Shown here: positions 5,703 to 63,879 of the stretch, one piece after another
Numbering within the stretch: the first letter of the stretch is position 1
Layout of the letters: each line of letters begins with the position of its first letter
Origin: Eledone cirrhosa
Taxonomy: Eukaryota
Assembly (NCBI GenBank): GCA_964016885.1
Contig: OZ024743.1
Span: forward strand, 313,720,001 to 313,784,000
Direction of reading: 5' to 3'
DNA length: 64,000 nt
Program-made: the position numbers and the translations under genes
The notes under the pieces: model-generated
Database searches by the model: none
Told to the model about the DNA's origin: nothing
Seen by the model: the letters and a program-made list of their open reading frames with translations, nothing else

Positions 5703-5767
<65 letters not shown>

Positions 5768-6214
5768 TGTGATGGAGGGTTTGTGGGTTTTCTCGCATCT
5801 GGTTGGTGTTCGAATGTTACTTCTGTTTTATGTGGAAAAATGTGGCTGAAATTCTAGGTTTTTTAGAAAAGTAATTTGGTTGGTTGATGACTGTGATATG
5901 AATAAGTATAATAAATTCCGCGGCAGTTCGCGTTTGAGGGTTCTTTATTGTCATTTTCACTTAAAAATGTGGTTCAAAAATGTTTTTTTTTATAAATGTA
6001 ATTTGATTGGATCTGACTGGACATTCAATTTCGCGCCAGTTCGTATTTGGGGTTCTTTGTAGCCGTTTTCACAGTCACATGATTTGTCATAGAGAGTTTT
6101 GTCCCAAACAAAAGATAATTGTCTAGAAAAACGGGCTGGGGAGAATTGTTCTGGTTCAGTGAGTATGGCTGACGTGCTGACGTGTCAAAATTCAGACTTT
6201 CTATTGGAATTTAA
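5768..6214 (-). mobile_element. Truncated pLTR copy of the CCAAT/E-box PLE family
   Basis: Aligns by eye to 47178-47650 and to the reverse complement of ~21170-21710; TA tracts on both sides. Confidence 0.65.
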
Positions 6215-14181: not shown

Positions 14182-14258
14182 GCTTTTACCGACGGTTTCG
14201 CCTCAAAAGATTGGAAATTCAAAGGACTTCCAATGGAAAGATCGGCTCTTCAGAAAGC
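14182..14258 (-). ncRNA. Type I hammerhead ribozyme
   Basis: RC: GCTTT-CTGAAGA-GCC..ATTGGAAG..TTTCCAAT..GGC-GAAA-CCGTCGG-TA-AAAGC; lies ~190 nt upstream of the (TA)n at 13926-13990. Confidence 0.85.
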
Positions 14259-16315: not shown

Positions 16316-16884
16316 CATTTAACTTTATCATAGCTATGATTAGCTTTCTCTTTAGGACAGATAACACAGCTTGAGATCCTCTATCCTATTATTTTCCTTT
16401 GTTTTCTTTCGCCCTTCTATATGTACTGTTTGTTTTATCTCACACACATCATACTAGCAGAAAGATATATTTTTCTGTTGCACGATCCAGGACTTTAAAA
16501 TGGTACTCTTAATTACATCGTGCGAAACTATTTTGTTGGTTTGAGAGCTGATGAGGGTGATGATGTGTTAAAACTTGTCTCATATATCGCTTTTATTTAT
16601 TTTCTCTTTCGGTCAATTCTGTGCGCCAACACATTTCTCCTTGTCCTCCTACTCTTTCAATCTTTCTATATTTCATCTGTCTGTCACCCAACTTGTGGAT
16701 TGTCTCTTTGTTGAAAACATTTAGCTGTTTTAACAGTTGTTCTAGCGGTGAGTTGTCTCATTTTTATTTATATATATATGAATGTATATATAGTGTATTT
16801 TGCAATACACTGTATGCTTAATTAAAAGCATTTCGAAGACCTTATACTATTGTTTTAGAGTAGTGACAGTCTCACTTGCTTTAA

Positions 16885-16977
16885 TTTTCAGCAAACAGGG
16901 CAGATAAAGCTGACAGGGCCCTGTTTCGCATTTTTTTATGCTTATCAAAGCCAACTACTCCTCCTGTTTGCTGAAAA
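16885..16977 (-). ncRNA. Type I hammerhead, U3-A8 core, extended stem I (unit 1)
   Basis: RC: TTTTCAGCAAACAGG..GGCT-TTGATAA-GCAT aaaaaa ATGC-GAAA-CAGGGCCCTG-TC-AGCT..CCTGTTTGCTGAAAA. Confidence 0.85.
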
Positions 16978-17202
16978 TCATGGATGTTTGATTCTTATAG
17001 AATACTAGTAAATAATCAGGAAGTGATTACATACAGCCGTTGCCGGTCAAGCAGAAATTGAAAATTAGAATTGGTGCTCTGAAATAGCTATATATATGAA
17101 TGTATATATAGTGTATTTTGCAATACACTGTATGCTTAATTAAAAGCATTTCGAAGACCTTATGCTATTGTTTTAGAGTAGTGACAGTCTCACTTACTTT
17201 AA

Positions 17203-17295
17203 TTTTCAGCAAACAGGGGAGATAAAGCTGACAGGGCCCTGTTTCGCATTTTTTTATGCTTATCAAAGCCAACAACTCCTCCTGTTTGCTGAAAA
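17203..17295 (-). ncRNA. Type I hammerhead, U3-A8 core, extended stem I (unit 2)
   Basis: Core identical to unit 1, at 17226-17270. Confidence 0.85.
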
Positions 17296-17592
17296 TCATG
17301 GATGATTGATTCTTATAGAATTCTAGTAAATAATCAGGAACTGATTATACAGAGCGGTTGCCGGTCAAGCAGAAATTGAAAATTAGAATTGGTGCTCTGA
17401 AATGGCTATATATATATGAATGTATATATAGTGTATTTTGCAATACACTGTATGCTTAAACAGGGTCCTGTCAGCTTTATCTCCCTTGTTTGCTGAAAAT
17501 TAAAGTAAGTGAGACTGTCACTACTCTAAAACAATAGCATAAGGTCTTCGAAATATTTTTAATTAAGCATCCTTGAGTATATATGTCTTCAG

Positions 17593-17919
<327 letters not shown>

Positions 17920-18020
17920 GATATAGATATATATATGTGTGTGTGTGTGTGTATGTGTGTGCGTGTGAGAGTGTGTGTGTGTATGTGTGTGTGAGTGTAT
18001 GTTTATGCTTGTATATATGT

Positions 18021-18276
18021 GAAGGCGTATGGCTTAGTGGTTAGAGCATTGGGCTTGCAATCGAAAGGTTATGAGTTCAATTCTCGGACAGGGTGATGTG
18101 TTGTTTCCTTGAGCAAGACACTTTATTTTACGTTGCTCCAGTTTACTCAGCTGTAGAAATGAGTACCGGCCTGCCCGCCCGGCCAGTGGGATGGCGTTAT
18201 CTTATGGCTAAAACAGCACGACGTGCTGTGACCAGCGGTGCCGATGGGCGCCCGCAGGCTGGTCGGTCAAGGTGAT
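18021..18276 (+). mobile_element. CORE-like tRNA-derived SINE
   Basis: A box TGGCTTAGTGG and B box GAGTTCAATTC, then CCTTGAGCAAGACACTTTATTT..CGTTGCTCCAGTT.ACTCAGCTGTAGAAATGAG. Confidence 0.85.
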
Positions 18277-21099: not shown

Positions 21100-21818
21100 A
21101 ATAACATACGTTTAGACAGCTTGACAAATTGAAAACTGCGGCAGGTAAACCTAGCCACATAGTACCAAATCAACGTAAAAACCAATGTAATTTCATTACA
21201 TTTCAGCACATCAGTCATACTCAGAACAACTCTCTCCATCCCTTTTTCTTAACCATTATCTTTTGTTTGGCACCAAATTCTCTAAATGGATACAAAAAAT
21301 TCCAAAATACGGGTGCGAAATTTAATGTACTTGTTCACGTGACAGTCATAATTTCATTTATAACCAATCAAATTACATTTATAAATAAAGCCTTCGTGAG
21401 CCACCTTTTTTTTAAGGTAAAAAGAAATTCAAACACAAACTGGTGCGAAAGCTGATGTGCTTATTCACGTGACTGCATCAGCCAATCAAACTTCACTGAT
21501 ATATGAAAAAACAACCTGAGCCCCCCCCCCCTTTTTAAAGGCAAATATAAGAACTTTGTAACGCGACTTAGCGTGAAATTTATTATACTTATTCACCACC
21601 AACCAAATTACTTCTCTAAAAACCTAGCATTTCGAGCCACTTTTTTTTCCGTATAAAACAGAACATTTAAACACCATCCAGATGTGAGAAAAACCACAGA
21701 CCCTCCATCTCAATTCTACTTTTGAAAAGCAGAAGAACTGCGAAACCGGTAAAGGAACAAAATAAATATATATTTTAATAAAAAAAGATTCTAGATTCAC
21801 TTTCGATTTCATCTTTTT

Positions 21819-21822
<4 letters not shown>
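21100..21822 (+). mobile_element. pLTR of CCAAT/E-box PLE family ending at (TA)n
   Basis: Reverse complement of ~47067-47650; three promoter-like modules, TATAAAA at 21652 and a hammerhead at 21719-21754. Confidence 0.7.
21719..21754 (+). ncRNA. Minimal hammerhead, U3-A8 core
   Basis: CTT-TTGAAAA-GCAG aagaa CTGC-GAAA-CCGG-TA-AAG. Confidence 0.7.
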
Positions 21823-21872
<50 letters not shown>

Positions 21873-30629: not shown

Positions 30630-33600
30630 CGGCCAAACGTCAACAACTATGGCACTGCTGGCTCCCCCCTTCCCCACCAACAATATAAAAAGCCCCAGTA
30701 CCACCACCGACATAGCCAACAACAATAACAGGCAACTTCAGCAAAAAGTATATTATATTATTGTAATGCACTGGGTAATTGCTGGCCTTGTGCCTCGAGT
30801 GGAGACAATTATTAATAATTTCATTCTTAAGCCACGCAATGCTCACATTAAGGAACCACTCATGATAATAACAATTTAAAAAAAAACAACAGAAAGAAAA
30901 CCCCGTGACCAAGAAATACTGGCATGGCGGCCGGCGGGGAATAGCCGTGTCTCTAGGGGAGAACGACCCCTCTAGTCTTGGTTGACACTCGTTCTAGAAG
31001 TGGTAACACGAAATGATTACCCCTTGGCGGATAAGGATAAAACGCGACCAAATAAAGTAAATGTCTAATGATAAAATCTCATACCGGATCGGCCGTCACC
31101 CGGGTAAAAAAGGGCCGCGTCCCTCAGAGAGGAACCAGACTGGGGTCGAAAAATCAGCTAATGGTTCAAACCTTCCCATCACTTCGGAGCTGGAGACCTC
31201 CCATAACCGGAATACTCCTACTGTTGGCCCTCCATGCTCACCACCAAGAAATCCAAAGAAAAAGAGAGAAAAATGGTCAAGGGAAGATAATAAAGAAGTC
31301 CTTGAGGCTTTCTACACTGCCATGTACTACCCATCAAATACATCGAATACAGAACAGACATATATCAACTGGAAAAAGAAACATCCCGAAAACAGAGGCT
31401 ATATTAACACTAACAAACTAGCCAATATACGAAGAAATATTGTAAAAAAAAAAGTTACTGATATAGAAATTGATCAGATCAAGCTATTAGCACAAAGTTA
31501 GCGAAGGGAAAAGGAAACATGTGTCAGTGAAAACGAGGTAAATTGTAACACTTCGAACCCCAGGGTTGGGGCCGAATCACTGGCAACAGAACAAATTAAA
31601 GAAAGGATCGAAAAAATGGAGGGAGTGCATGCTCAGGATGAAACTCCAAATGAAAATAATGAGATCGTAAATGATAAAGAAATGAATGAGAATGAACTTG
31701 CCAACTTGAAGGATGAAATTATGATCGAATGGATGAAAATGAAAGAATCTGACATGGGGCAACGAGACACCCTCCCTAAGATCCAGAACTCCAAACAGAA
31801 CCAAAAGATAATACACAAGACTAACATAATTCTCAAAAACATTATCATCACAAACAAACTAAACATTACTGATTTAAATCATCTCTATTATGCATAGGCT
31901 AAAGTCACCACTCACTTATGTGGAGTGAAGATGCAAAAACAAAGGAATTCCCACAAGAAATCTACTTGGCAAGATAACATCAATCGCCAAATAAACCTTC
32001 TCCGATCTGACATAGAAATTTTAAAAAACTATAAAGTAGGTGAACATGTTAAACAAACTAAACTTAGAAAATTGAAAAGAAAGTACAGTACAAAATCAAC
32101 AAGTGACATAGACATGCTGATAGAAATAATCAAGCAAAAAGTGTCGGCCAAAGCTGCTCGTATAAGGCGCTTTGAAAAACAATCTAGATTCTATAAGGAC
32201 AATAATATGTTCAAAAACAACCAAAGAAACTTCTACAGAAAAATTGGTGAGTCAGCAATAACTGCTAAATCAATACCACCCAAGGAGGAAGTGCAAGAAT
32301 TCTGGGAAAAGATCTGGGCCGAAGAAAAAGTACATAACATACATGCCCCATGGATAGACAGACAAATGAAAGATACAGCTCACCTTGAGGAACAAATATG
32401 CATTACATTCCTGCTTCCGAAGAATGATGAGACAAACAATCCCCAAAATACAGACCGATAACTTGCTTGACCACAATGTATAAAATTTTAACATCAGTCC
32501 TAACTGAATGTACATATGACCACCTGATAACAAATGACCTATTTCCCATTGAGCAGAAAGGGTGTAAACGAGGCTCATATGGCTGTAAGGATCAGCTTTT
32601 GGTTAACAAAATGATATTGGAAGATTGTCATAATAGACACAAACATCTATCAATTGCTTGGATAGATTATAAAAAAGCATTCGATAGTTTGCCACACAGT
32701 TGGATTGAAAAATGTTTAGAGATTTTCAAAATATCCCCCGTTGTCAGGAGGTTTTTGTCGTTCAGTATGAAGACATGGAAAACGACACTCCTTTTGAATA
32801 GTGAAACAAAATCACTGGAAGCTGGAGAAGTTAATATTAATTGTGGAATTTTTCAGGGTGACTCTTTATCACCGCTTTTATTCTGCATCGCACTTATACC
32901 ATTAAGTAAAATGCTCAATGAAACAAAACATGGATATAAAGTCTATGACAAAACCATTAATCACTTGTTCTACATGGATGACCTGAAACTATTTGCAAAA
33001 AATAATGAACAATTGCAAGGGCTATTATCCACTGTGAAGCAGTTCAGTGATGACATTAAAATGGAGTTTGGACTAGATAAATGCGCCAAAGTAACGTTCA
33101 CCAGAGAAAAGCTGCGGAAGAGTTCGGACATTAATCTTGATCGGGGGAATGTGATAAGAGAACTTGATCAAGAAAAAACTTGCATATATCTAGGTGTTTG
33201 TGAAGGAGACGGCATCAAGCACTCGACAATGAGGGAAAGGATAAGGAAGGAATGTTACCGCAGAGTAAGAGAAATCTTAAGAACGAAATTGAATGCAAGG
33301 AATAGGATCGATGCCATAAACACGCTTGCCATACCAGTAGTAACCTACAGTTACGATGTCATCAACTGGACAAGCACAGAGATCCGTAGGCTCGATACAA
33401 AAAGTCGAAAATTCTTAACCATGCACAGAATGCATCACCCTAAGGCAGATACAGATAGAATATATCTCCCTAGGAAAGAAGGAGGACGTGGGTTAATCCA
33501 GTTAGACATTGCGTTGAAAACTGCAACAATTGGATTATCTACATATCTAAGGGAATCACATGATTGGATGATCAAACTCGTTTTGAAACACGAAAGCATC

Positions 33601-34665
33601 AAAAGATCATACTCCATTACAAAAGATGCACAAAGATACAGTAATGGACTACACATTTCAGAAGTCACATTTACTGCTGAAATGGAAAACACAGAAAAAG
33701 TAAAGCAGGTAAAACTAACTGCAAAGAAAGAACAGCTACAGAAACTGGCTAAGAAATGGCAAGAAAAGCCTCTGTATGGAAAATACCCAGAACGAGCTAA
33801 CAATCCTGATGTTGACAAAACTTTAACCCATCAGTGGTTGGCATCCTCTGGACTGAAATCGGAGACTGAAGGACTGATTATATCAGCACAAGATCAGTGT
33901 CTGCCAACCAAAAATTACCAAGCCAACATAATAAAAAAATGGATGCAGCCCATTATGCCGTGTATGTAAAAAACAACCAGAGACCATTGACCATATAATT
34001 TCAATGTGCAGTCCTATAGCTCCAACCGAATACCTAAACAGGCATGACAGAGCTGCACAATACATGCATTGGATAATGTGTAAGCATCTTGACCTGCACC
34101 ATCAAAAGGATTGGTGGGAGCATCAACCACCTCCCATACTTGAAAAAGATCACATCTCAATCTTGTGGAACTTTAGTATCCAAACAGACCGAAAAATAGA
34201 TGCAAATAGACCTGATATAATATTGAAGGACTTTAAAAAGAGGGTATGCCTGCTAATTGATATGTCTGTTCCAATAGACAAGAATGTATCTATAAAAACA
34301 TTTGAAAAATTGAGCACGTATAAGGATCTGGAGATAGAAATTGGAAAAATGTGGAAATTGAGAACTAAAACAATACCAGTGGTTGTAGGCGCTCTGGGAA
34401 TGATACCTAAGGGGTCTAATGATTACTTATCGCAAATCCCAGGAAACCCGCGTATAGGAGAAATACAAAAGATAGTACTAATGGGAACTGCCCATATACT
34501 AAGGAAGATTCTGTCAATATAAGTACATCACAAGTCTAAACACTAAAGATGCATGTGTGAGTATGTATGTTCTTTCTTGAACATGGCAGACCTTGTTGTC
34601 TCTTGAGGTCACTGGTTGTGACTTGGTGATAACTCGTATGAACATAAAGCAAGGTAAATGCAACT

Positions 34666-34666
<1 letters not shown>
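30630..34666 (+). mobile_element. R4/Dong-type non-LTR retrotransposon, family A copy 1 (near full length, disrupted; 5' end may extend to ~30298)
   Basis: Broken ORF 31061-34522: N-terminal KWSREDNKEVLEAFY, RT (WIDYKKAFDS, GIFQGDSLSP, YMDDLK), CRVC..H...C zinc knuckle and RPDII..D..K restriction-like endonuclease. A 3' UTR and (TAA)n follow. Confidence 0.93.
31061..34522 (+). pseudogene. RT-RLE polyprotein of family A copy 1
   Basis: ORFs 31061-31501, 31616-31897, 31925-32461, 32467-33969 and 34004-34522 are consecutive pieces separated by stops or frameshifts; in-frame 186-nt deletion at ~32400 relative to copy 2. Confidence 0.9.

Positions 34667-34715
<49 letters not shown>
34667..34715 (+). 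repeat. (TAA)n junction between tandem retrotransposon copies
   Basis: Read directly. Confidence 0.95.
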
Positions 34716-34717
<2 letters not shown>

Positions 34718-37700
34718 AAATAATGAGATCGTAAATGATAAAGAAATGAATGAGAATGAACTTGCCAACTTGAAGGATGAAATTATGATCGAATGGATGA
34801 AAATGAAAGAATCTGACATGGGGGAACGAGACACCCTCCCTAAGATCCAGAACTCCAAACAGAACCAAAAGATAATACACAAGACTAACATAATTCTCAA
34901 AAACATTATCATCACAAACAAACTAAACATTACTGATTTAAATCATCTCTATTATGCATCGGCTAAAGTCACCACTCACTTATGTGGAGTGAAGATGAAA
35001 AAACAAAGGAATTCCCACAAGAAATCTACTTGGCAAGATAACATCAATCGCCAAATAAACCTTCTCCGATCTGACGTAGAAATTTTAACAAACTATAAAG
35101 TAGGTGAACATGTTAAACAAACTAAACTTAGAAAATTGAAAAAAAAGTACAGTATAAGATCAACATGTGACATAGACATGCTGATAGAAACAATCAAGCA
35201 AAAAGTGTCGGCCAAAGCTGCTCGTATAAGGCGCTTTGAAAAACGATCTAGATTCTATAAGGACAATAATAGGTTCAAAAACAACCAAAGAAACTCCTAC
35301 AGAAAATTGGTAAGTCAACAATAACTGCTAAATCAATACCACCCAAGGAGGAAGTGCAAGAATTCTGGGAAAAGATCTGGGCCGAAGAAAAAGTTCATAA
35401 CATACATGCCCCATGGATAGACAGACAAATGAAAGAAACAGCTCACCTTGAAGAACAAACATGGGAAAATATAACAGTTGAACAGCTGCGCTTGGCTCTA
35501 AGAAAAACCAGCAAATGGAAATCCCCAGGAAAAGACAAAATACAAAACTTTTGGATAAATGCCTTCACAGAGTCTCGTGAGCTGTTAGCCCAACTTTACA
35601 ATGAAATAGTTAAGGAGCCAGAAAAGATACCATCATGGCTAGTTAACGGCATTACATTCCTGCTACCGAAGAATGATGAGACAAACAATCCCAAAAATTA
35701 CAGACCGATAACCTGCTTGACCACAATGTATAAAATTTTAACATCAGTCCTAACTGAATACACATATGACCACCTGATAACAAATGACCTATTTCCCATT
35801 GAGCAGAAAGGGTGTAAACGAGGCTCATATGGCTGTAAGGATCAGCTTCTGGTTAACAAAATGATACTGGAAGATTGTCATAATAGACACAAAAATCTAT
35901 CGATTGCTTGGATAGATTATAAAAAAGCATTTGATAGTTTGCCACACAGTTGGATTGGAAAATGTTTAGAGATTTTCAAAATATCCCCCGTTGTCAGGAG
36001 GTTTTTGTCATTCAGTATGAGGACATGGAGAACGACACTCCTTTTGAATAGTGAAACAAAATCACTGGAAGCTGGAGAAGTTAACATTAATTGTGGAATT
36101 TTTCAGGGTGACTCTTTATCACCGCTTTTATTCTGTATCGCACTTATACCATTAAGTAAAATGCTCAATGAAACAAAACATGGATATAGAGTCTATGACA
36201 AAACCATTAATCACCTGTTCTACATGGATGACCTGAAACTATTTGCAAAAAATGATGAACAATTGCAAGGGCTATTATCCACTGTGAAGCAGTTCAGTGA
36301 TGACATTAAAATGGAGTTTGGACTGGATAAATGCGCCAAAGCAACGTTCACCAGAGGAAAGCTGCTGAAGAGTTCAGACATTAATCTTGATCGGGGGAAC
36401 GTGATAAGAGAGCTTGATCAAGAACAAACTTACAAATATCTAGGTGTTTGTGAAGGAGACGGAATCAAGCACTCGACAATGAGGGAAAGGATAAGGAAGG
36501 AATGTTACCGCAGAGTCAGAGCAATCTTAAGAACGGAATTGAATGCAAGGAATAGGATCGATGCCATAAACACGCTTGCCATACCAGTAGTAACCTACAG
36601 TTACAATGTCATCAACTGGTCAAGCACAGAGATCCGTAGGCTCGATACAAAAATCCGAAAATTCTTAACCATGCACAGAATGCATCACCCTAAGGCAGAT
36701 ACAGATAGAATATATCTCCCTAGGAAAGAAGGAGGACGTGGGTTAATCCAGTTAGACATTGCGTTGAAAACTGCAACAATTGGATTATCCACATATCTAA
36801 GGGAATCACATGATTGGATGATCAAACTCGTTTTGAAACACGAAAGCACCAAAAGATCATATTCCATTACAAAAGATGCACAAAGATACAGTAATGGACT
36901 ACAAATTTCAGAAGTCCCATTTACTGCTGAAATGGAAAACACAGCAAAAGCAAAGCAGGTAAAAGTAACTGCAAAGAAAGAACTGCTACAGAAACTGGCT
37001 AAGAAATGGCAAGAAAAGCCTCTGTATGGAAAATACCCAGAACGAGCTAACAATCCTGATGTTGACAAAACTTTAACCCATCAGTGGTTGGCATCCTCTG
37101 GACTGAAATCGGAGACTGAAGGACTGATTATATCAGCACAAGATCAGTGTCTGCCAACAAAAAATTACCAAGCCAACATAATAAAAAATGGGTGCAGCCC
37201 ATTATGCCGTGTATGCAAAAAACAACCAGAGACCATTGACCATATAATTTCAATGTGCAGTCCTATAGCTCCAACCGAATACCTAAACAGGCATGACAGA
37301 GCTGCACAATACATACATTGGATAATGTGTAAGCATTTTGACCTGCCCCATCAAAAGAATTGGTGGGAGCATCAACCACCTCCCATACTTGAAAAAGATC
37401 ACATCTCAATCTTGTGGAACTTTAGCATCCAAACAGACCGAAAAATAGATGCAAATAGACCTGATATAATATTGAAGGACTTTCAAAGGAGGGTATGCCT
37501 GCTAATTGATATGTCTGTTCCAATAGACAAGAATGTATCTATAAAAACATTTGAAAAATTGAGCAAGTATAAGGACCTGGAGATAGAAATTGGAAAAATG
37601 TGGAAATTGAGAACTAAAACAATACCAGTGGTTGTAGGCGCTCTGGGAATGATACCTAAGGGGTCTAATGATTACTTATCGCAAATCCCAGGAAACCCGC

Positions 37701-37910
37701 GTATAGGAGAAATACAAAAGATAGTACTAATGGGAACTGCCCATATACTAAGGAAGATCCTGTCAATATAAGTACATCACAAGTCTAAACACTAAGGATG
37801 CATGTGTGAATATGTATGTTCTTTCTTGAACATGGCGGACCTTGTTGTCTCTTGAGGTCACTGGTTGTGACTTGGTGATAACTCGTATAAACATAAAGCA
37901 AGATAAATGC
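34713..37910 (+). mobile_element. R4/Dong-type family A copy 2 (5'-truncated)
   Basis: Begins at the equivalent of ~31649 in copy 1; one frameshift near 35310; same 3' UTR; (TAA)n at 37912-37930. Confidence 0.95.
35354..37771 (+). CDS. Reverse transcriptase plus CCHC zinc knuckle plus restriction-like endonuclease (uninterrupted 805-aa frame of a truncated copy)
   Basis: WKSPGKDKI, NYRPITCL, EQKGC, YKKAFDS, QGDSLSP, YMDD, CRVCKKQPETIDHIISMC, RHD, RPDIILKD, LLIDMSVP, KLSKYKDL. Confidence 0.9.
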   Translation: MQEFWEKIWAEEKVHNIHAPWIDRQMKETAHLEEQTWENITVEQLRLALRKTSKWKSPGKDKIQNFWINAFTESRELLAQLYNEIVKEPEKIPSWLVNGITFLLPKNDETNNPKNYRPITCLTTMYKILTSVLTEYTYDHLITNDLFPIEQKGCKRGSYGCKDQLLVNKMILEDCHNRHKNLSIAWIDYKKAFDSLPHSWIGKCLEIFKISPVVRRFLSFSMRTWRTTLLLNSETKSLEAGEVNINCGIFQGDSLSPLLFCIALIPLSKMLNETKHGYRVYDKTINHLFYMDDLKLFAKNDEQLQGLLSTVKQFSDDIKMEFGLDKCAKATFTRGKLLKSSDINLDRGNVIRELDQEQTYKYLGVCEGDGIKHSTMRERIRKECYRRVRAILRTELNARNRIDAINTLAIPVVTYSYNVINWSSTEIRRLDTKIRKFLTMHRMHHPKADTDRIYLPRKEGGRGLIQLDIALKTATIGLSTYLRESHDWMIKLVLKHESTKRSYSITKDAQRYSNGLQISEVPFTAEMENTAKAKQVKVTAKKELLQKLAKKWQEKPLYGKYPERANNPDVDKTLTHQWLASSGLKSETEGLIISAQDQCLPTKNYQANIIKNGCSPLCRVCKKQPETIDHIISMCSPIAPTEYLNRHDRAAQYIHWIMCKHFDLPHQKNWWEHQPPPILEKDHISILWNFSIQTDRKIDANRPDIILKDFQRRVCLLIDMSVPIDKNVSIKTFEKLSKYKDLEIEIGKMWKLRTKTIPVVVGALGMIPKGSNDYLSQIPGNPRIGEIQKIVLMGTAHILRKILSI

Positions 37911-38243: not shown

Positions 38244-38250
<7 letters not shown>

Positions 38251-38670
38251 AGATCAAAAGATGGTTAAAGGAGTTCCATATATTTTCTTATGCGCATTTC
38301 AAAAACAAACATCATCAAGCAATAATATTTGTGTTTTCATCAGATAAAACAGGAGAACATGATATGAAGGCTAAAAAAACACTTGTTGATAGTGCAGTTG
38401 TAAATCAACATATCCTATGTTGATTTAAAACTGCACTATCAACAAGTGTTTTTTTAGCCTTCATATCATGTTCTCCTGTTTTATCTGATGAAAACACAAA
38501 TATTATTGCTTGATGATGTTTGTTTTTGAAATGCGCATAATAAAATATATGGAACTCCTTTAACCATCTTTTGATCTTATATTATGCATACTCCAGTCCC
38601 ACAAACTGTAGAGTGCTTCTTATCCGATATCTGCATTGCTTTATTGTACTACAATAAAACTCACCTCCTA
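38244..38670 (+). mobile_element. Fold-back pLTR (arms ~38244-38410/38418-38584) plus ~87-nt tail ending at (TA)n
   Basis: Near-perfect palindrome; another copy at 39478-39672 and a solo tail at 13253. Confidence 0.85.
38470..38555 (+). ncRNA. Type I hammerhead ribozyme (mirror copies ~38283-38350 and ~39517-39584 on -)
   Basis: TTTTAT-CTGATGA-16-bp stem II (AAACACAAATATTATT gctt GATGATGTTTGTTTTT, one mismatch)-GAAA-TGCGCA-TA-ATAAAA; distal stem I GTTC../..GGAAC. Confidence 0.85.
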
Positions 38671-39304: not shown

Positions 39305-39745
<441 letters not shown>

Positions 39746-46939: not shown

Positions 46940-47132
46940 CGAAGGAAATGTGGTAAGGAACCAGGTGGACCATAACGCACCAAAGTACTCAATGAGTCCA
47001 GAATTAGCCGTCGAAACGGCTTGAGCTCAGCTGTCGGGGTCTTACTGGTTCATATATATATATATAAAGAGATGAAATCGAAAATGCAACTGGAGTATTA
47101 TTTTTTTTTTAAATATATATATTTATTTGCTT

Positions 47133-47170
47133 CCTTTACCGGTTTCGCAGTTCTTTTGCTTTTCAAAAGG
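47133..47170 (-). ncRNA. Minimal hammerhead, U3-A8 core
   Basis: RC: CCTT-TTGAAAA-GCA aaagaac TGC-GAAA-CCGG-TA-AAGG. Confidence 0.75.
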
Positions 47171-47682
47171 TGAGTTGAGATGGAGGGTCTGTGGTTTTTC
47201 TCACATCTGGTTGGTCTCTGAATGTTACTTGTTTTATATGGAAAAAGTGGCTCGAAATGCCAGGTTTTTCGAGAAGTAACTTGATTGGTTTGTCAATAAT
47301 TATAATAAATTTCGCGCCAGTTCGCGTTACAATAGTTCTTCAAATAAGAGAGAGGGGGGGGGGGTTGTCACAGGTTGTTTTTTCATATATGAGTGTTTGA
47401 ATTTCTTTTTACTTGAAAAAAGGAGGCTCACGAAGGCTTTTTTTTGGTTGGTTATAAATGAAATTTGGCTGTCACGTGAACAAGTTTTCATTACATTTTT
47501 GCGCCCTTATTTGGAAAACTATTCTGTAGTCTTTATAGTGAATGTTATGACAATGGAGAGATAGTGGTCAATAGAAAAGGGATTGGGAGAATTGTTCTGG
47601 ATCAGTGAATATGGCCAGCTCGCCGGGGTGTCAGAGTTCAGATTTTCTATTGAAGTGAAGATATGTATGTTTATTTGTGTGC

Positions 47683-47782
<100 letters not shown>

Positions 47783-48256
47783 TGGAAGATGATTCTATTA
47801 GTAGAGATGAGGGAGGGAGTTGTGTGTGTGTGTATATGGGTGTTATGTGTGTGTGTGCGAGTATGTTAAGATGGAGAGAATATATATTTTGTGTGTGTGT
47901 ATATATATATGTGTGTAGGAAAGTGGTTCTATTAGTAGAAATGGGGAGGGAGTTGTAGGTGTGGGGGTTGTTATGTGTGTGTATGGGTGTTATGTGTGTG
48001 GGAGTATGGTTAGCATGTTAAGATGAAGAGAATATATATATATATTGTGTGTGTGTGTATGTGTGTGTGTAGGAAAGTGATTCCTTTAGTATGAATATTT
48101 TTGAATGAACATATTTTCCTTACTTTTTCGTGTTTGCTGTTGTATTGCCAGTGCAAACGTATGTTAAGGTTTATTTAGTTCGGGTTTTTATTTTCTAAAG
48201 TAGAAGGTGTTATGTGTGTGTGTGTATGTCATATTGTGGTGTTGACATAATGTATA

Positions 48257-48958
48257 TTAAACCTTATTTAATGTTGGTTTATATTTTTGAATAAACATAT
48301 TTTCCTTATTTATTCGCATTTGTTTTGTTGTATTGTTAGCGCAAAGGTAAAATGGGAAGACTTGGAATTTGGATGTCTTATTACTTGCGCAAATGTCTAG
48401 ATGTGCACTTAGTGGTATCTGTCTCGTGGTTGGATCTCGTAATTGTTGGCGATGAACTGTCATTCTGTTTCTGAGTGTGAGTTTAGTTTGTCCTATATAA
48501 TCTTCATTGCATCCTTTACATTTAATGGCATAAAGTAGATTTTTTGATGAGCAAGTGAAGTGATTTTTTACAGTAAAATTTTGTCCTGATTTAAATGTAT
48601 ACGTGTTGCCTTCAATGAGGTGAGTGCAGGTTCCACAATTAGAGCGACCACATTTTTTGATACTTGGTTGTGGGTTTGTGGTAGGTAATTTGGCATTGGT
48701 GAGTAATGTTTTCAGTGATTTTGGTTGTCTCTTGCTTTTGATTATTTTGTGTGTTTCAAGGGCTTTTTTCATTCTTGGGTTTTGTTTTAGTAGTGGAATG
48801 TTATTGTGAATAGTGTTGTAAGCTTCCGCATTTCTTGGGTTGTGTGTTGAGATATATGATAAAATATTGGACGTACCTTGAATTTGTTTCTGTTTCCGTA
48901 ATTCATCAATGCCTATTGCTTTAGCCCTTTCTATTCCATTATTTATTAGTAATAGTGG

Positions 48959-48961
<3 letters not shown>
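48257..48961 (-). CDS. PLE C-terminus: RT thumb end, Cys-rich linker and GIY-YIG endonuclease (Neptune-like)
   Basis: YPLLLI..KRQPKSLKTLL..CGRSNCGTC..FTCSSKNLLYAIKCKGCNEDYIGQT..LRNRMTVHR..HLD..KENMFIQKYKPTLN. The called ORF's first ~40 aa are SINE and microsatellite sequence. Confidence 0.88.
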
Positions 48962-49041
<80 letters not shown>

Positions 49042-57114: not shown

Positions 57115-57497
57115 CTGGTGGTTTTGGACAAGGCGAAAAGGTTCGTGCCTGATTGTAGATGTAGCCTGCCCATTTGACACGAGAGTGCAAGAAAAAGAGA
57201 GGGAGAAAATTAACCGATACCAGGATTTAAAGTGGGATTTAAAAAGGATTTGGAGCAGACATGAAATCAACGTCGTCCCGATTGTAATAGGCGCACTAGG
57301 TACTATCACAAAGAGTTTCCAAGGATGGTTAAAGAAGATTAGTCAAGATCCTCTTTTTGGAACACTTCAAAAGGCATGCTTGCTGGGAACAGCAAGAACC
57401 CTCCGATACGTCCTGAATATCAGAGGCTGCGGGTAGCGGCTTGATATTCATTTCAACAAACTTTCCAGTTAAATAACATCAATGACTGAAACACAAA

Positions 57498-57498
<1 letters not shown>
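57115..57498 (+). mobile_element. R4/Dong-type family B' 3' fragment
   Basis: ORF 57185-57436 is closely similar to the C-terminus of 59095-59748; (TAA)n follows at 57499-57558. Confidence 0.9.
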
Positions 57499-57558
<60 letters not shown>

Positions 57559-59822
57559 TTGAGTATCACAGTTGAAACTCTTAAGGGGCAAGCCAAAAAA
57601 CTAACCAACTGGAAATCACCAGGCCCAGATGGTGTGCAGGGGTATTGGATTAAACATTTAACATCCCTCCACCCGAAGCTGACGGCCATGTTCAATGACT
57701 GCTTGGTGTCGGGTGAGGTGCCAGAGTGGTTGACAAAAGGTACCACAGTTCTGATAATGAAAGACCGAATCAAGGGTAATGATGCTACCAACTATAGACC
57801 TATCACATGTCTGCCCGTAATGTGGAAACTGTTGACGAGCATTGTGTCTGAGGAAATCTACCATCACCTCCACACAAACAACTTGTTACCGGACGAACAG
57901 AAAGGATGCCGAAAGAAGTCACGTGGTACAAAGGACCAGTTGCTTATTGATAAGATGGTAATGGGGAATTGCAGGAGGAGACACACTGATCTTGCCATGG
58001 GATGGATAGACTACAGAAAGGCATTTGACATGGTGCCTCATTCCTGGATCACCAAAAGCCTGGAGATCTTCAGGGTGGCGGATAACATCAGACAGTTGCT
58101 AGGCAGGAGTATGGGGTCCTGGGAGACAGAGCTGACATCAACTGGAGTATCCTTGGGAAGCGTGAAGATCAAGAGAGGTATCTTCCAGGGAGATAGCCTG
58201 TCCCCTCTGTTGTTTGTCCTTGCCCTGATGCCCTTGACCATTATGCTGCGAAAAGTGAGAGCAGGATACAAGTTGGGAAGGGGAGAGCTTACCATCAATC
58301 ACCTCCTCTTCATGGACGATCTTAAGCTCTTCGGGAAAAGTGAGAAGGAGTTGGATGTGCTTGTTGACACTGTCCGTATTTTCAGCAGTGATATATGTAT
58401 GCAGTTTGGTATTGGTAAATGTGGAGTCATTGTGATGAAGAGAGGTAGGTTGAGCAGAAGTAACGGGATCCAGATACCAACAGGTGAGATGATAAAGGAA
58501 ATTGACTCTGAGGAAGGATACAAGTATTTGGGCGTTCTGGAGGCTGATGGCATAAAGAACAAAAAAATGAAGGAATTGTTAAGAACTGAATACATTCGGA
58601 GAGTAAGGAGCGTATTGAAGTCACATCTGAACAGCAGAAATGCCATAAGCGCAGTAAATTCCCGAGCTGTGTCTATTATTAGGTACAGTGCGGGAATTCT
58701 GAGATGGAATGTTGCTGAACAAAAAGAAATGGATAGGAAGACTAGGAAACTATTGACTATCTACAACATGTTCCACAGGAGGAGTGATGTCGATAGACTC
58801 TACCTAAGGAGATCTGAGGGTGGAAGAGGTCTTATCAGCATAGAGGACTGTGTTCGGATGGAGAAAAACAACCTATACAAATACGTGACCTATAGTAAGG
58901 AGCCAATGCTCAGAACTGTACTGAAGGAGGGGACAGTAGGCCAGGGGATGTCCAAGGAGGAAATAACATCAAGGAGGAAGAGCAGCCTTAAGGGAAAATC
59001 CCTTCATAGTACCTTCTTTGAGAAAACTGAATTTAGAGATCCACAGACATGGAACTGGTTGAGAAGAGGAGACCTCAAAAAGGCTACATAAGGAATGCTA
59101 ATGGCTGCGCAGGAGCAGGCCCTCAAAACGAAGTGGTTGAAGCACCATATCTACAAGGAGGAGGCTAGCCCACTGTGCAGGATCTGTGGAGAGAGAGAGG
59201 AGACTGTGGCTCACATTGTGTCCGAGTGTAAACACCTAGCCCAGACCCACTATAAGGGCTGGAGACACGATGTGATGGGCAGGGTGATTCACTGGCACCT
59301 GTGCAAAGTAAACAATCTACCACATTCTGAGAAATGGTATGAGCATAGGCCAGAGGCGGTGATGGAGAACAATCAGGTGAAGGTGCTGTGGGATTTTAGG
59401 ATACAGACGGACAAAAAACTGGAACACAATAGACCTGACCTGGTGGTTGTGGACAAAGAAAAAAGATCGTGCCTGATTGTGGATGTGGCCTGCCCGTTCG
59501 ACACGAGAGTGCAAGAGAAGGAGAGGGAGAAAATTAACCGATACCAGGACCTAAAGTGGGAGGTGAAAAGGATTTGGAACTGCCATGAAGTCAAAGTGAT
59601 CCCGATTGTCATAGGCGCACTGGGGACTATCTCCAAAAGTTTCCAGGGATGGTTAAAGAAAATCGGCCCCTTCACGCTTTTTGGAACGCTTCAAAAGGCA
59701 TGCTTGCTTGGAACAGCAAGAACCCTCCGATACGTCCTGAATATCTGAGGCTGCAGGTAGTGGCTTGATATTCAATCCAACGGACTTTCCAGTTAACCAA
59801 CATCAATGACTGAGATTCAAGG
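57559..59822 (+). mobile_element. R4/Dong-type family B, 5'-truncated; one nonsense codon at 59089-59091
   Basis: ORFs 57559-59091 and 59095-59748 are in the same frame: RT (IDYRKAFD, QGDSLSP, FMDD), CRIC..H...C, RPDLVV..D..K; (TAA)n at 59823-59891. Confidence 0.95.
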
Positions 59823-59893: not shown

Positions 59894-62800
59894 GGCCAAA
59901 CGTCAACAACTATGGCACTGCTGGCTCCCCCCTTCCCCACCAACAATATAAAAAGCCCCAGCACCACCACCGACATAGCCAACAACAATAACAGGCAACT
60001 TCAGCAAAAAGTATATTATATTATTGTAATGCACTGGGTAATTGCGGGCCTTGTGCCTGGAGTGGAGACAATTGTTAATAATTTCATTCTTAAGCCACGC
60101 AATGCTCACATTAAGGAACCACTCATGATGATAACAATTTAAAAAAAACAACAAAAAAGAAAACCCCGTGACCAAGAAATACCGGGATGGCGGCCGGCGG
60201 GGAATAGCCGTGTCTCTAGGGGAGAACGACCCCTCTAGTCTTGGTTGACACTCGTTCTAGAAGTGGTAACACGAAATGATTACCCCTTGGCGGATAAGGA
60301 TAAAACGCGACAAAATAAAGAAGTCCTTGAGGCTTTCTACACTGCCATGTACTACCCATCAAATACATCGAATACAGAACAGACATATATCAACTGGAAA
60401 AAGAAACATCCCGAAAACAGAGGCTATATTGACAGTAACAAACTAGCCAATATACGAAGAAATATTGTAAAAAAAAAGTTACTAACTGATATAGAAATTG
60501 ATCAGATCAAGCTATTAGCACAAAGTCAGCGAAGGGAAAATGAAACATGTGTCAGTGAAAACGAGGTAAATTGTAACACTTCGAATCCCAGGGTTGGGGC
60601 GGAATCACTGACAACAGAACAAATTAAAGAAAGGATCGAAAAAGTGGAGGGAGTGCATGCTCAAGGTGAAACTCCAAATGAAAACAATGAGATCGTAAAT
60701 GATAAAGAAATGAATGAGAATGAACTTGCCAACTTGAAGGATGAAATTATGATCGAATGGATGAAAATGAAAGAATCTGACATGGGGGAACGAGACACCC
60801 TCCCTAAGATCCAGAACTCCAAACAGAACCAAAAGATAATACACAAGACTAACATAATTCTCAAAAACATTATCATCACAAACAAACTAAACATTACTTA
60901 TTTAAATCATCTCTATTATGTATCGGCTAAAGTCACCACTCACTTATGTGGAGTGAAGATGAAAAAACAAAGGAATTCCCACAAGAAATCTACTTGGCAA
61001 GAGAACATCAATCGCCAAATAAACCTTCTCCGATCTGACATAGAAATTTTAAAAAACTATAAAGTAGGTGAACATGTTAAACAAACTAAACTTAGAAAAT
61101 TGAAAAGAAAGTACAGTATAAAACCAACAAGTGACATAGGCATGCTGATAGAAATAATCAAGCAAAAAGTGTCGGCCAAAGCTGCTCGTATAAGGCGCTT
61201 TGAAAAACGATCTAGATTCTATAAGGACAATAATATGTTCAAAAACAACCAAAGAAACTACTACAGAAAAATTGGTAAGTCAACAATAACTGCTAAATCA
61301 ATACCACCCAAGGAGGAAGTGCAAGAATTCTGGGAAAAGATTTGGGCCGAAGAAAAAGTACTTAATATACATGCCCCATGGATAGACAGACAAATGAAAG
61401 ATACAGCTCACCTTGAGGAACAAATATGGGAAAATATAACAGTTGAACAGTTGCGTTTGGCTCTTAGAAAAACCAGCAAATGGAAATCCCCAGGAAAAGA
61501 CAAAATACAAAATTTTTGGATACATGCCTCCACAGAGTCTCATGAGCTGTTAGCCAACTTTACAATGAAATAGTTAAGGAGACAGAAAAGATACCATCAT
61601 GGCTAGTTAACGGCATTACATTTCTGCTTCCGAAGAATGATGAGACAGACAATCCCCAAAATTACAGACCGATAACTTGCTTGACCACAATGTATAAAAT
61701 TTTAACATCAGTCCTAACTGAATATACATATGACCACCTGATAACAAATGACCTATTTCCCATTGAGCAGAAAGGGTGTAAACGAGGCTCATATGGCTGT
61801 AAGGATCAGCTTTTATTTAACAAAATGATACTGGAAGATTGTCATAATAGACACAAAAATCTATCAATTGCTTGGATAGATTATAAAAAAGCATTCGATA
61901 GTTTGCCACACAGTTGGATTGAAAAATGTTTAGAGATTTTCAAAATATCCCCCGTTATCAGGAGGTTTTTGTCGTTCAGTATGAAGACATGGAAAATGAC
62001 ACTCCTTTTGAATAGTGAAACAAAATCACTGGAAGCTGGAGAAGTTAATATTAATTGTGGATTTTTTCCGGGTGACTCTTTATCACCGCTTTTATTCTGC
62101 ATCGCACTTATACCATTAAGTAAAATGCTCAATGAAACAAAACATGGATATAAAGTCTATGACAAAACCATTAATCACTTGTTCTACATGGATGACCTGA
62201 AACTATTTGCAAAAAATGATGAACATGGCAAGGGCTATTATCCACTGTGGAGCAGTTCAGTGATGACATTAAAATGGAGTTTGTACTAGATAAATGCGCC
62301 AAAGCAACGTTCACCAGAGGAAAGCTCATGAAGAGTTCAGACATTAATCTTGATCGAGGGAATGTGATAAGAGAACTTGATCAAGAGGAAACTTACAAAT
62401 ATCTAGGTGTTTGTGAAGGAGATGGAATCAAGCACTGGACACTGAGGGAAAGGATAAGGAAGGAATGTTACCGCAGAGTAAGAGCAATCTTAAGAACGGA
62501 ATTGAATGCAAGCAATAGGATCGATGCCATAAACACGCTTGCCATACCAGTAATAACCTACAGTTACAATGTCATCAACTGGTCAAGCACAGAGATCCGT
62601 AGGCTCGATACAAAAATTCGAAAATTCTTAACCATGCACAGAATGCATCACCCTAAGGCAGATACAGATAGAATATATCTCCCTAGGAAAGAAGGAGGAC
62701 GTGGGTTAATCCAGTTAGACATTGCGTTGAAAACTGCAACAATTGGATTATCTACCTATCTAAGGGAATCACATGATTGGATGATCAAACTCGTTTTGAA

Positions 62801-63879
62801 ACACGAAAGCATCAAAAGATCATACTCCATTACAAAAGATGCACAAAGATACAGTAATGGACTACACATTTCAGAAGTCCAATTTACTGCTGAAATGGAA
62901 AACACAGAAAAAGCAAAGCAGGTAAAAGTAACTGCAAAGAAAGAACAGCTACAGAAACTGGCTAAGAAATGGCAAGAAAAGCCTCTGTATGGAAAATACC
63001 CAGAACGAGCTAACAATCCTGATGTTGACAAAACTTTAACCCATCAGTGGTTGGCATCCTCTGGACTGAAATCGGAGACTGAAGGACTGATTATATCAGC
63101 ACAAGATCAGTGTCTGCAAAACAAAAAATTACCAAGCCAACATAATAAAAAAATGGATGCAGCCCATTATGCCGTGTATGTAAAAAACAACCAGAGACCA
63201 TTGACCATATAATTTCAATGTGCAGTCCTATAGCTCCAACCGAATACCTAAACAGGCATGACAGAGCTGCACAATACATGCATTGGATAATGTGTAAGCA
63301 TTTTGACCTGCCCCATCAAAAGAATTGGTGGGAGCATCAACCACCTCCCATACTTGAAAAAGATAACATCTCAATCTTGTGGAACTTTAGTATCCAAACA
63401 TACCGAAAAATAGATGCAAATAGACCTGATATAATATTGAAGGACTTTAAAAAGAGGGTATGCCTGCTAATTGATATGTCCGTTCCAATAGACAAGAATG
63501 TATCTATAAAAACATTTGAAAAATTGAGCAAGTATAAGGACCTGGAGATAGAAATTGGAAAAATGTGAAAATTGAGAACTAAAACAATACCAGTAGTTGT
63601 AAGCGCTCTAGGAATGATACCTAAGGGGTCTAATGATTACTTATCGCAAATCCCAGGAAACCCGCGTATAGGAGAAATACAAAAGATAGTACTAATGGGA
63701 ACTGCCCATATACTAAGGAAGATTCTGTCAATATAAGTACATCACAAGTCTAAACACTAAAGATGCATGTGTGAGTATGTATGTTCTTTCTTGAACATGG
63801 CAGACTTTGTTGTCTCTTGAGGTCACCGGTTGTGACTTGGTGATAACTCGTATGAACATAAAGCAAGATAAATGCAGCT

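Follow-up and report, generated by a model that had tools for sequence, protein, structure and literature searches.

Animal non-LTR retrozymes are non-coding tandem repeats of 150–450 bp with a GC content below 50% and one type I hammerhead per unit; they range from monomers to long arrays, fold strongly as monomers and coexist with PLEs (PMC7229834). Their units measure 350–390 bp in mussel, 330 or 350 bp in axolotl and 220–245 bp in coral, they are expressed as circles in these three animals, and PLEs have been put forward as their possible mobilisers (Cervera and de la Pena 2020, PMC7229834). A study of Xenopus took co-occurrence and pLTR similarity as grounds to regard retrozymes as non-autonomous derivatives of PLEs; one of nine predicted retrozyme dimers was cleaved in vitro, whereas the other eight were not (Li, Clavereau and Pollet 2026, bioRxiv 10.64898/2026.07.22.740005). 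The enzyme that moves animal retrozymes has so far been proposed from co-occurrence and sequence similarity.

PLE insertions have an anatomy of their own, which comprises partial tandems, an inverted 5'-truncated copy, TA targets and a tail of 30–40 bp, usually on one end (Craig et al. 2021, PMC8557442). In vitro, the tail is flanked by two internal RT start sites, which are the same on both strands, and both target strands are cut and extended; anole PLE RNA with a dead ribozyme inserts normally, cleavage being unneeded in vitro, and coupling of the two start sites within one event was not seen in that system (Frangieh et al. 2024, PMC11167929). In canonical EN+ PLEs of the Neptune/Nematis type, a hammerhead of the minimal form lies upstream of the two internal start sites (PMC8557442; PMC11167929). 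The non-autonomous PLEs of the Chlamys clade, such as MRC1, are non-coding, multicopy, head-to-tail insertions of the PLE type that generally resemble the 3' end of their autonomous partner, in a clade mostly devoid of hammerheads (Craig et al. 2021).

Here we describe a 318-bp repeat in a window of 64,000 nucleotides from Eledone cirrhosa (contig OZ024743.1 of GCA_964016885.1). The locus is very probably one insertion of a non-autonomous PLE, that is, of an animal non-LTR retrozyme. The family is a non-coding 318-bp tandem repeat that is dispersed in the genome and carries a type I hammerhead motif, and it is likely a small parasite of PLEs. Membership among animal non-LTR retrozymes, as proposed by an initial annotation of this DNA, agrees with size and layout, since the repeat is non-coding, within 150–450 bp and low in GC, with a hammerhead in two consecutive units; the range from monomers to long arrays, the strongly folded monomer and the coexisting PLEs are shared as well. 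It differs in its U3-A8 core and 4-bp stem III, and in that cleavage and circles are predicted here. Fixed 3' ends, tails and inverted arms, all present in the family, are not described for animal non-LTR retrozymes in the parts of PMC7229834 on which we draw. Our conclusion is the same as that of Li et al. (2026), a non-autonomous PLE; theirs was based on co-occurrence and pLTR similarity, whereas ours is based on insertion anatomy, no pLTR homology to a partner having been found in the family compared. With canonical EN+ PLEs the family shares partial tandems, the inverted 5'-truncated arm, the tail on one end, the TA targets and a hammerhead upstream of two internal start sites, but its unit has no ORF, its tail is 25–32 nt long and its hammerhead is of full size with a long distal stem. 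Unlike the Chlamys PLEs, which are likewise non-coding, the unit carries a hammerhead and has no detected similarity to a partner. These comparisons hold for the portions of each source cited. Elements of this kind, such tails and this variant of the core had all been known before. In the open-access literature we found no account of the family in cephalopods (Repbase, Dfam, subscription journals and supplements may list it), and in the same literature, subscription journals and supplements aside, no paper that joins retrozymes to tail anatomy.

The tandem repeat and its hammerhead motifs

TRF reported a tandem repeat at 16770–17459 with a period of 318, 2.2 copies and 95% matches. Successive periods are 318 and 320 bp long, the difference being a TA indel, in agreement with the approximately 2.2 units of 318–320 bp first annotated. 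One hammerhead per full unit had also been claimed, and the minus strand indeed holds two complete type I motifs, whose GUC sites, 17230 and 16912, are separated by 318 nt. Their 15-bp distal stem, stem II and stem III match the earlier description, and a comparison of the two units places all their differences outside the hammerhead core, as had been stated. Unit positions are counted from the base that follows the cleavage site (position 1). No ORF longer than 49 codons was found in either direction of the 318-nt unit. The 3'-terminal partial unit stops at the 'short' 3' end of the family, at the left edge of a TA tract. The inverted partial copy had been described as beginning within stem III and ending at (TA)n; it does begin at the first base of stem III (17460), with a 2-nt microhomology, but its match to the unit stops at 17570, 22 bases before the tract. 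This arm lacks the catalytic core; it also lacks the standard long end, which most family members have.

Table 1. Features of the locus, of the PLE family and of other elements in the window. Coordinates are window positions unless a locus is named.
Feature	Coordinates	Strand	Remarks
Older pieces of the two-ORF PLE family	12-384, 1245-1449, 5767-5934, 21222-21825		
3'-terminal partial unit	16771..16911	-	unit positions 1-141 from cleavage site
Type I hammerhead motif A	16885..16977	-	U3-A8 core from 16948; predicted cut 16912/16911
Full 318-nt unit	16912..17229	-	predicted monomer, between successive predicted cleavage sites
Internal copy of the 25-nt 'tail'	17064..17088	-	positions 142-166, between the two fixed 3' ends of the family
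Type I hammerhead motif B	17203..17295	-	core from 17266; predicted cut 17230/17229
5'-truncated unit	17230..17459	-	positions 91-318
Inverted second arm	17460..17570	+	positions 306-318, then 1-98
22 bases without alignment to the unit	17571..17592	.	between inverted arm and microsatellite; origin unexplained
(TA)n tract, inferred target site	17593..17936	.	TRF and TA flanks of other copies
Non-LTR retrotransposons with RT	31061-37771, 57490-59748, 60239-63568	+	
Hammerheads of another family	38485	+	canonical core with long stem II
	39577	-	canonical core with long stem II
PLE fragment with GIY-YIG domain	47057-48970	-	5'-truncated (92%); short 3' end in TA repeats
Full PLE copies	loci L051-L059		4,679-nt unit; overlapping 409-aa and 775-aa frames; U3-A8 minimal hammerhead

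The core of both window units has U3-A8 instead of C3-G8, with GAAA and the NUH site present. This variant is natural and has been reported active in vitro (Perreault et al. 2011, PMC3088659), and Schistosoma PLEs also have it (Cervera and de la Pena 2014, PMC4209133). From 193 family copies, 177 were parsed and gave 168 U3-A8, four C3-G8 (one subfamily) and five other cores. Core covariation is as in the U3-A8 hammerheads of the two sources just cited, in the parts used here; the difference is that U3-A8 and C3-G8 coexist in one repeat family. Stem II occurs in five fully paired versions (58, 32, 26, 6 and 4 copies), and stems I–III and the 3-8 pair covary across subfamilies. In an alignment of 20 rows, hand-picked as subfamily examples with their relatedness uncontrolled, and with many loci picked up by core patterns, 12 of 28 pairs were changed on both sides, every helix being represented, and 96% of the cells were paired (0 of 500 shuffles). 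Rfam made no hammerhead call at the gathering score (HH9, 22.3 bits, E 0.0076, threshold 52); the consensus of the HH9 model is C3-G8, unlike the core found here. Covariation supports the hammerhead motif, self-cleavage itself being predicted, and the fact that the catalytic core and all stems covary implies that cleavage mattered.

The two motifs gave folding z-scores of -7.07 and -6.07, which none of 200 shuffles equalled, and the 318-nt monomer is also strongly folded (z -6.53). The hammerhead differed from the predicted minimum-energy fold in all seven copies tested, in which it lay 0.7–7.0 kcal/mol higher; in the two window copies the difference was 4.1 and 5.9 kcal/mol, which counts against activity. 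The hammerheads had been called intact, and because of this fold the word holds for their sequence only. The competing fold, for which a greater stability is predicted, pairs the 5' arm of stem I with stem III. At positions 278/313, 163 of 172 copies would allow this pairing, but they represent few subfamily events; we treat this compatibility as a lead only, for which the palindrome of stem III would account equally.

Dispersal through the genome

The family is scattered through the 3.0-Gb genome. Positions 1–20, taken as a 20-mer, have 1,177 exact matches genome-wide, and the core has 478 against 0 for the control, so that the locus belongs to a dispersed family, as the initial annotation supposed, and is not a single-locus duplication. 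A search for the unit gave 1,100 candidates, 40 of which were scored and yielded 124 matches; the tail motif gave 3,259 matches, sister subfamilies about 84–92% alike included. Most copies comprise 0.3–3.5 units. Two loci are satellite-like arrays, G000:C2:208895103-208908284 with 39 full units and G000:C1:82390457-82395955 with 17. Their units are approximately 10–11% diverged and have derived variants in common, and the arrays lack standard PLE ends; given the shared variants and the missing ends, they have evolved locally in the manner of satellites.

Two relatives of the unit were also noted. A sister subfamily (L164, L172–L177) has the canonical C3-G8 core with compensated stems, and an older 310-bp tandem (L081/L096, G000:C1:111533000-111534260) is 76% alike to unit positions 62–213.

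Insertion ends and TA targets

Copies with permuted ends had been anticipated, and here the prediction failed: the 3' ends lie at two fixed points after the cleavage site, about 141 nt (short) and 166–173 nt (long), and run into (TA)n, whereas only the 5' ends vary. The latter were scattered in a sample that is biased by the choice of loci. In a second sample, made up of other copies, TA repeats adjoined 72 of the 76 long and 60 of the 74 short ends (132 of 150 in all); target-site duplications are unreadable inside (TA)n. Fixed 3' ends that run into (TA)n are the signature of PLEs, and PLE insertions usually have such an inverted copy as their second arm.

The two ends of each insertion were then compared. 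The first sample counted 65 of 70 clusters (the other five were at a locus edge or shorter than 100 bp) and included 42 two-armed insertions, 34 of them with both ends standard. These 34 comprised 29 long+short, four short+short and one long+long (p 1.9e-5). One of the short+short cases is the copy in the window, whose second end is really non-standard, and another became long+short with more flank. Of the 120 clusters in the second sample, 103 were resolved and had not been in the first; two-armed insertions numbered 72, and 51 of the 53 with both ends standard were long+short. Thirty of the 138 loci of this sample had been selected through the tail motif, a choice biased towards a long end but not towards a short end facing it. 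The tail was accordingly on one end only in 29/34 and 51/53 cases, and in the pooled samples 87 two-armed insertions had two standard ends, 80 of them one short and one long. The value of the family is that it lets the PLE signature be counted cleanly on a retrozyme, in the company of a young PLE with ORFs. One weakness of a PLE origin is the inverted arm in the window, which has no standard end, a condition shared by 8/42 and 19/72 of the two-sided insertions in the respective samples. A deletion common to L217 and L218 was considered as a trace of the two arms and was rejected, as a later inverted duplication that took the flanks with it explains it instead.

A young autonomous PLE in the same genome

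The window contains a 5'-truncated PLE fragment and older pieces of the same two-ORF family (Table 1). The family is young, 150 of 24,144 candidates having been scored, at 97–100% identity. The 775-aa frame of the full copies carries a CX4CxxC linker, which is a mark of Neptune/Nematis (Craig et al. 2021, PMC8557442). The hammerhead of this PLE has the U3-A8 core, as has that of the unit. Of 56 ends, 24 lie 79 nt and 24 lie 147 nt after the family's own cleavage site, in TA repeats, and six of seven resolved two-sided copies were long+short. The resulting tail of about 68 nt is longer than the 25–32 nt of the 318-bp unit and the usual 30–40 bp.

Compared with the non-coding ends of this one full family, the unit had no homology beyond TA runs and a 7-nt terminal motif. 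The motif was rejected as a marker of the partner, since 483 of 1,000 shuffles scored equally and it also occurs internally in another family. Apparent chimeras of the unit with the autonomous PLE (L002, L050) were likewise set aside, as nested insertion into shared TA targets accounts for them. The PLE protein search scored the top family only, other PLE families being barely sampled. PLEs are well supported as the class of the mobiliser; that it is the two-ORF Neptune/Nematis-type family found here, or an older subfamily of it, we would propose only tentatively, with doubt somewhat outweighing confidence.

At least two more related families (L092–L119) carry U3-A8 hammerheads as well, and their 3' ends fall at two points in TA repeats, about 150 nt from each other; they gave 207 pattern matches in all, members of other families included. 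Their existence, like the different tail length, speaks against this particular PLE family as the mobiliser.

Mode of insertion and nature of the template

In the explanation that we prefer, the reverse transcriptase and GIY-YIG endonuclease of a PLE would copy the unit into the genome. The PLE protein would nick both strands of (TA)n, and reverse transcription would start at two internal RNA sites, one per target strand; each cDNA would extend over unit borders for a variable length before the two are joined head to head. The identical start sites on both strands in vitro (PMC11167929) and the failure of eight of nine predicted dimers to cleave (Li et al. 2026) speak against this explanation. 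Three other origins were weighed against it. The copies might be 5'-truncated stumps of an autonomous PLE that has the unit as its terminal repeat, and the PLE-type anatomy of the insertions would suit this reading, as would the restriction of the scored PLEs to the top family. However, every arm longer than one unit goes on into a further unit, with up to four unit borders crossed, no sampled copy was attached to an RT/GIY-YIG frame in a constant register, and PLE coding matches beside copies vary in position and strand. The 73 non-family 5' flanks have nothing in common apart from diverged parts of the unit, and share nothing coding with the PLE, so that this sample holds no stumps of a coding element; we consider such an origin quite improbable. 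Also very improbable, in our judgement, is the route of the initial annotation, in which a monomer released by self-cleavage forms a circle, and rolling-circle reverse transcription from arbitrary starting points turns it into permuted copies. The size of the unit, the 318-nt spacing of the predicted cleavage sites, the strong fold of the monomer, read-through of the junction and the retrozyme circles known in coral, mussel and axolotl (PMC7229834) all agree with this route, but the 3' ends are fixed at two sites and the 5' ends alone vary. Spread as a satellite by DNA-level duplication, with the hammerhead as a relic, finds its evidence in the two long arrays with their shared derived variants and missing standard ends. 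For the dispersed copies it is contradicted by their 0.3–3.5 units, fixed 3' ends, TA flanks, inverted arms and unrelated sites. As an origin of the family it is extremely improbable, and it describes instead the later history of the long arrays.

Within the preferred explanation, mobilisation by a PLE, the template may take more than one form. The base before the cleavage site is kept in 1,132 of the 1,177 copies of positions 1–20, so cDNA synthesis crosses the site, as copying round a circle requires and as the initial annotation implied. This read-through indicates that the template is a circle or an uncut multimer, both of which the DNA fits equally. A pile-up of 5' ends at the cleavage site was considered as a trace of cutting in vivo and was rejected, because it showed no excess over two of three controls: 13/30 breaks at position 1 (first 30 of 45 matches) compared with 12/30 at position 7 (of 35), 2/30 at position 46 (of 175) and 2/18 at position 316, all raw counts for which control denominators are missing. 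Read-through and the lack of an excess of breaks together argue that a cut linear monomer is not the main template.

Units of one insertion mismatch at subfamily-diagnostic sites in 46/337 and 50/356 cases (14%), compared with 44% between insertions, whereas other sites differ equally within and between insertions (4.8, 4.8 and 4.9%), as if units had been alike at insertion and had since decayed by about 2.4% each. Each insertion holds one subfamily, and one tandem contains two stem III haplotypes. A sister-family insertion with five full units has 18 variants, all private. Private variants with a shared subfamily would fit a circle and also a uniform uncut multimer, while the 14% mismatch at diagnostic sites and the one mixed tandem lean towards a multimer. 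Sharing of rare variants (99/730 inverted, 143/1,419 tandem, 1,230/355,884 between insertions) was discarded as a criterion, as it comes mostly from one sister-family locus (80 and 67 of the cases) and the arrays. As evidence on the template it lends weak support.

The uncut multimer is therefore an alternative branch inside the best explanation, with the same mobilisation by a PLE and a linear template from tandem loci; the hammerhead would be slow, protein-dependent or off, and circles would not contribute to copying. We give this branch slightly less than an even chance. Read-through of the cleavage site fits it equally, the arrays of 39 and 17 full units are possible sources, the competing fold is predicted to be more stable, the diagnostic-site mismatch exceeds the 4.8% background, two stem III haplotypes occur in one tandem, and ribozyme-dead anole PLE RNA inserts normally (PMC11167929). 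On the other hand, units of one insertion share their subfamily (14% versus 44% mismatch), the five-unit sister-family insertion looks as if derived from one template, the long arrays are about 10–11% diverged and without PLE ends, and the core and all stems covary. Whether the template would instead be a 318-nt circle made by double self-cleavage and ligation seems to us about evenly balanced. A more detailed version of the circle is rather unlikely as a whole, namely that the ribozyme-made circle of 318 nt would be the direct template of a dimeric PLE protein, with its two RT sites starting about 25–30 nt apart on the same RNA, one per nicked (TA)n strand, so that each two-armed insertion would receive a short and a long end; that its structure would be recognised without sequence homology to the host element; and that the competing pairing would keep the hammerhead off in the circle. 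An RNA of 318 nt makes a test of trans-mobilisation possible, in which one could ask whether circles serve as template and whether the start sites are coupled per event.

Other elements in the window

Another hammerhead-bearing family, with a canonical core and long stem II, occurs at about 38250–38670 and about 39485–39670; the first copy is a palindrome centred near 38415 with TA tracts on both sides. A further hammerhead-like motif with a canonical core and long stem II lies at 14253 on the minus strand. Two of the non-LTR retrotransposon copies stand in tandem with (TAA)n between them; the C-terminal region of these retrotransposons presumably resembles a restriction-like endonuclease. Just after a (TG)n tract, a tRNA-like head at 18030–18087 on the plus strand (Rfam tRNA, 29.2 bits) probably belongs to a SINE.
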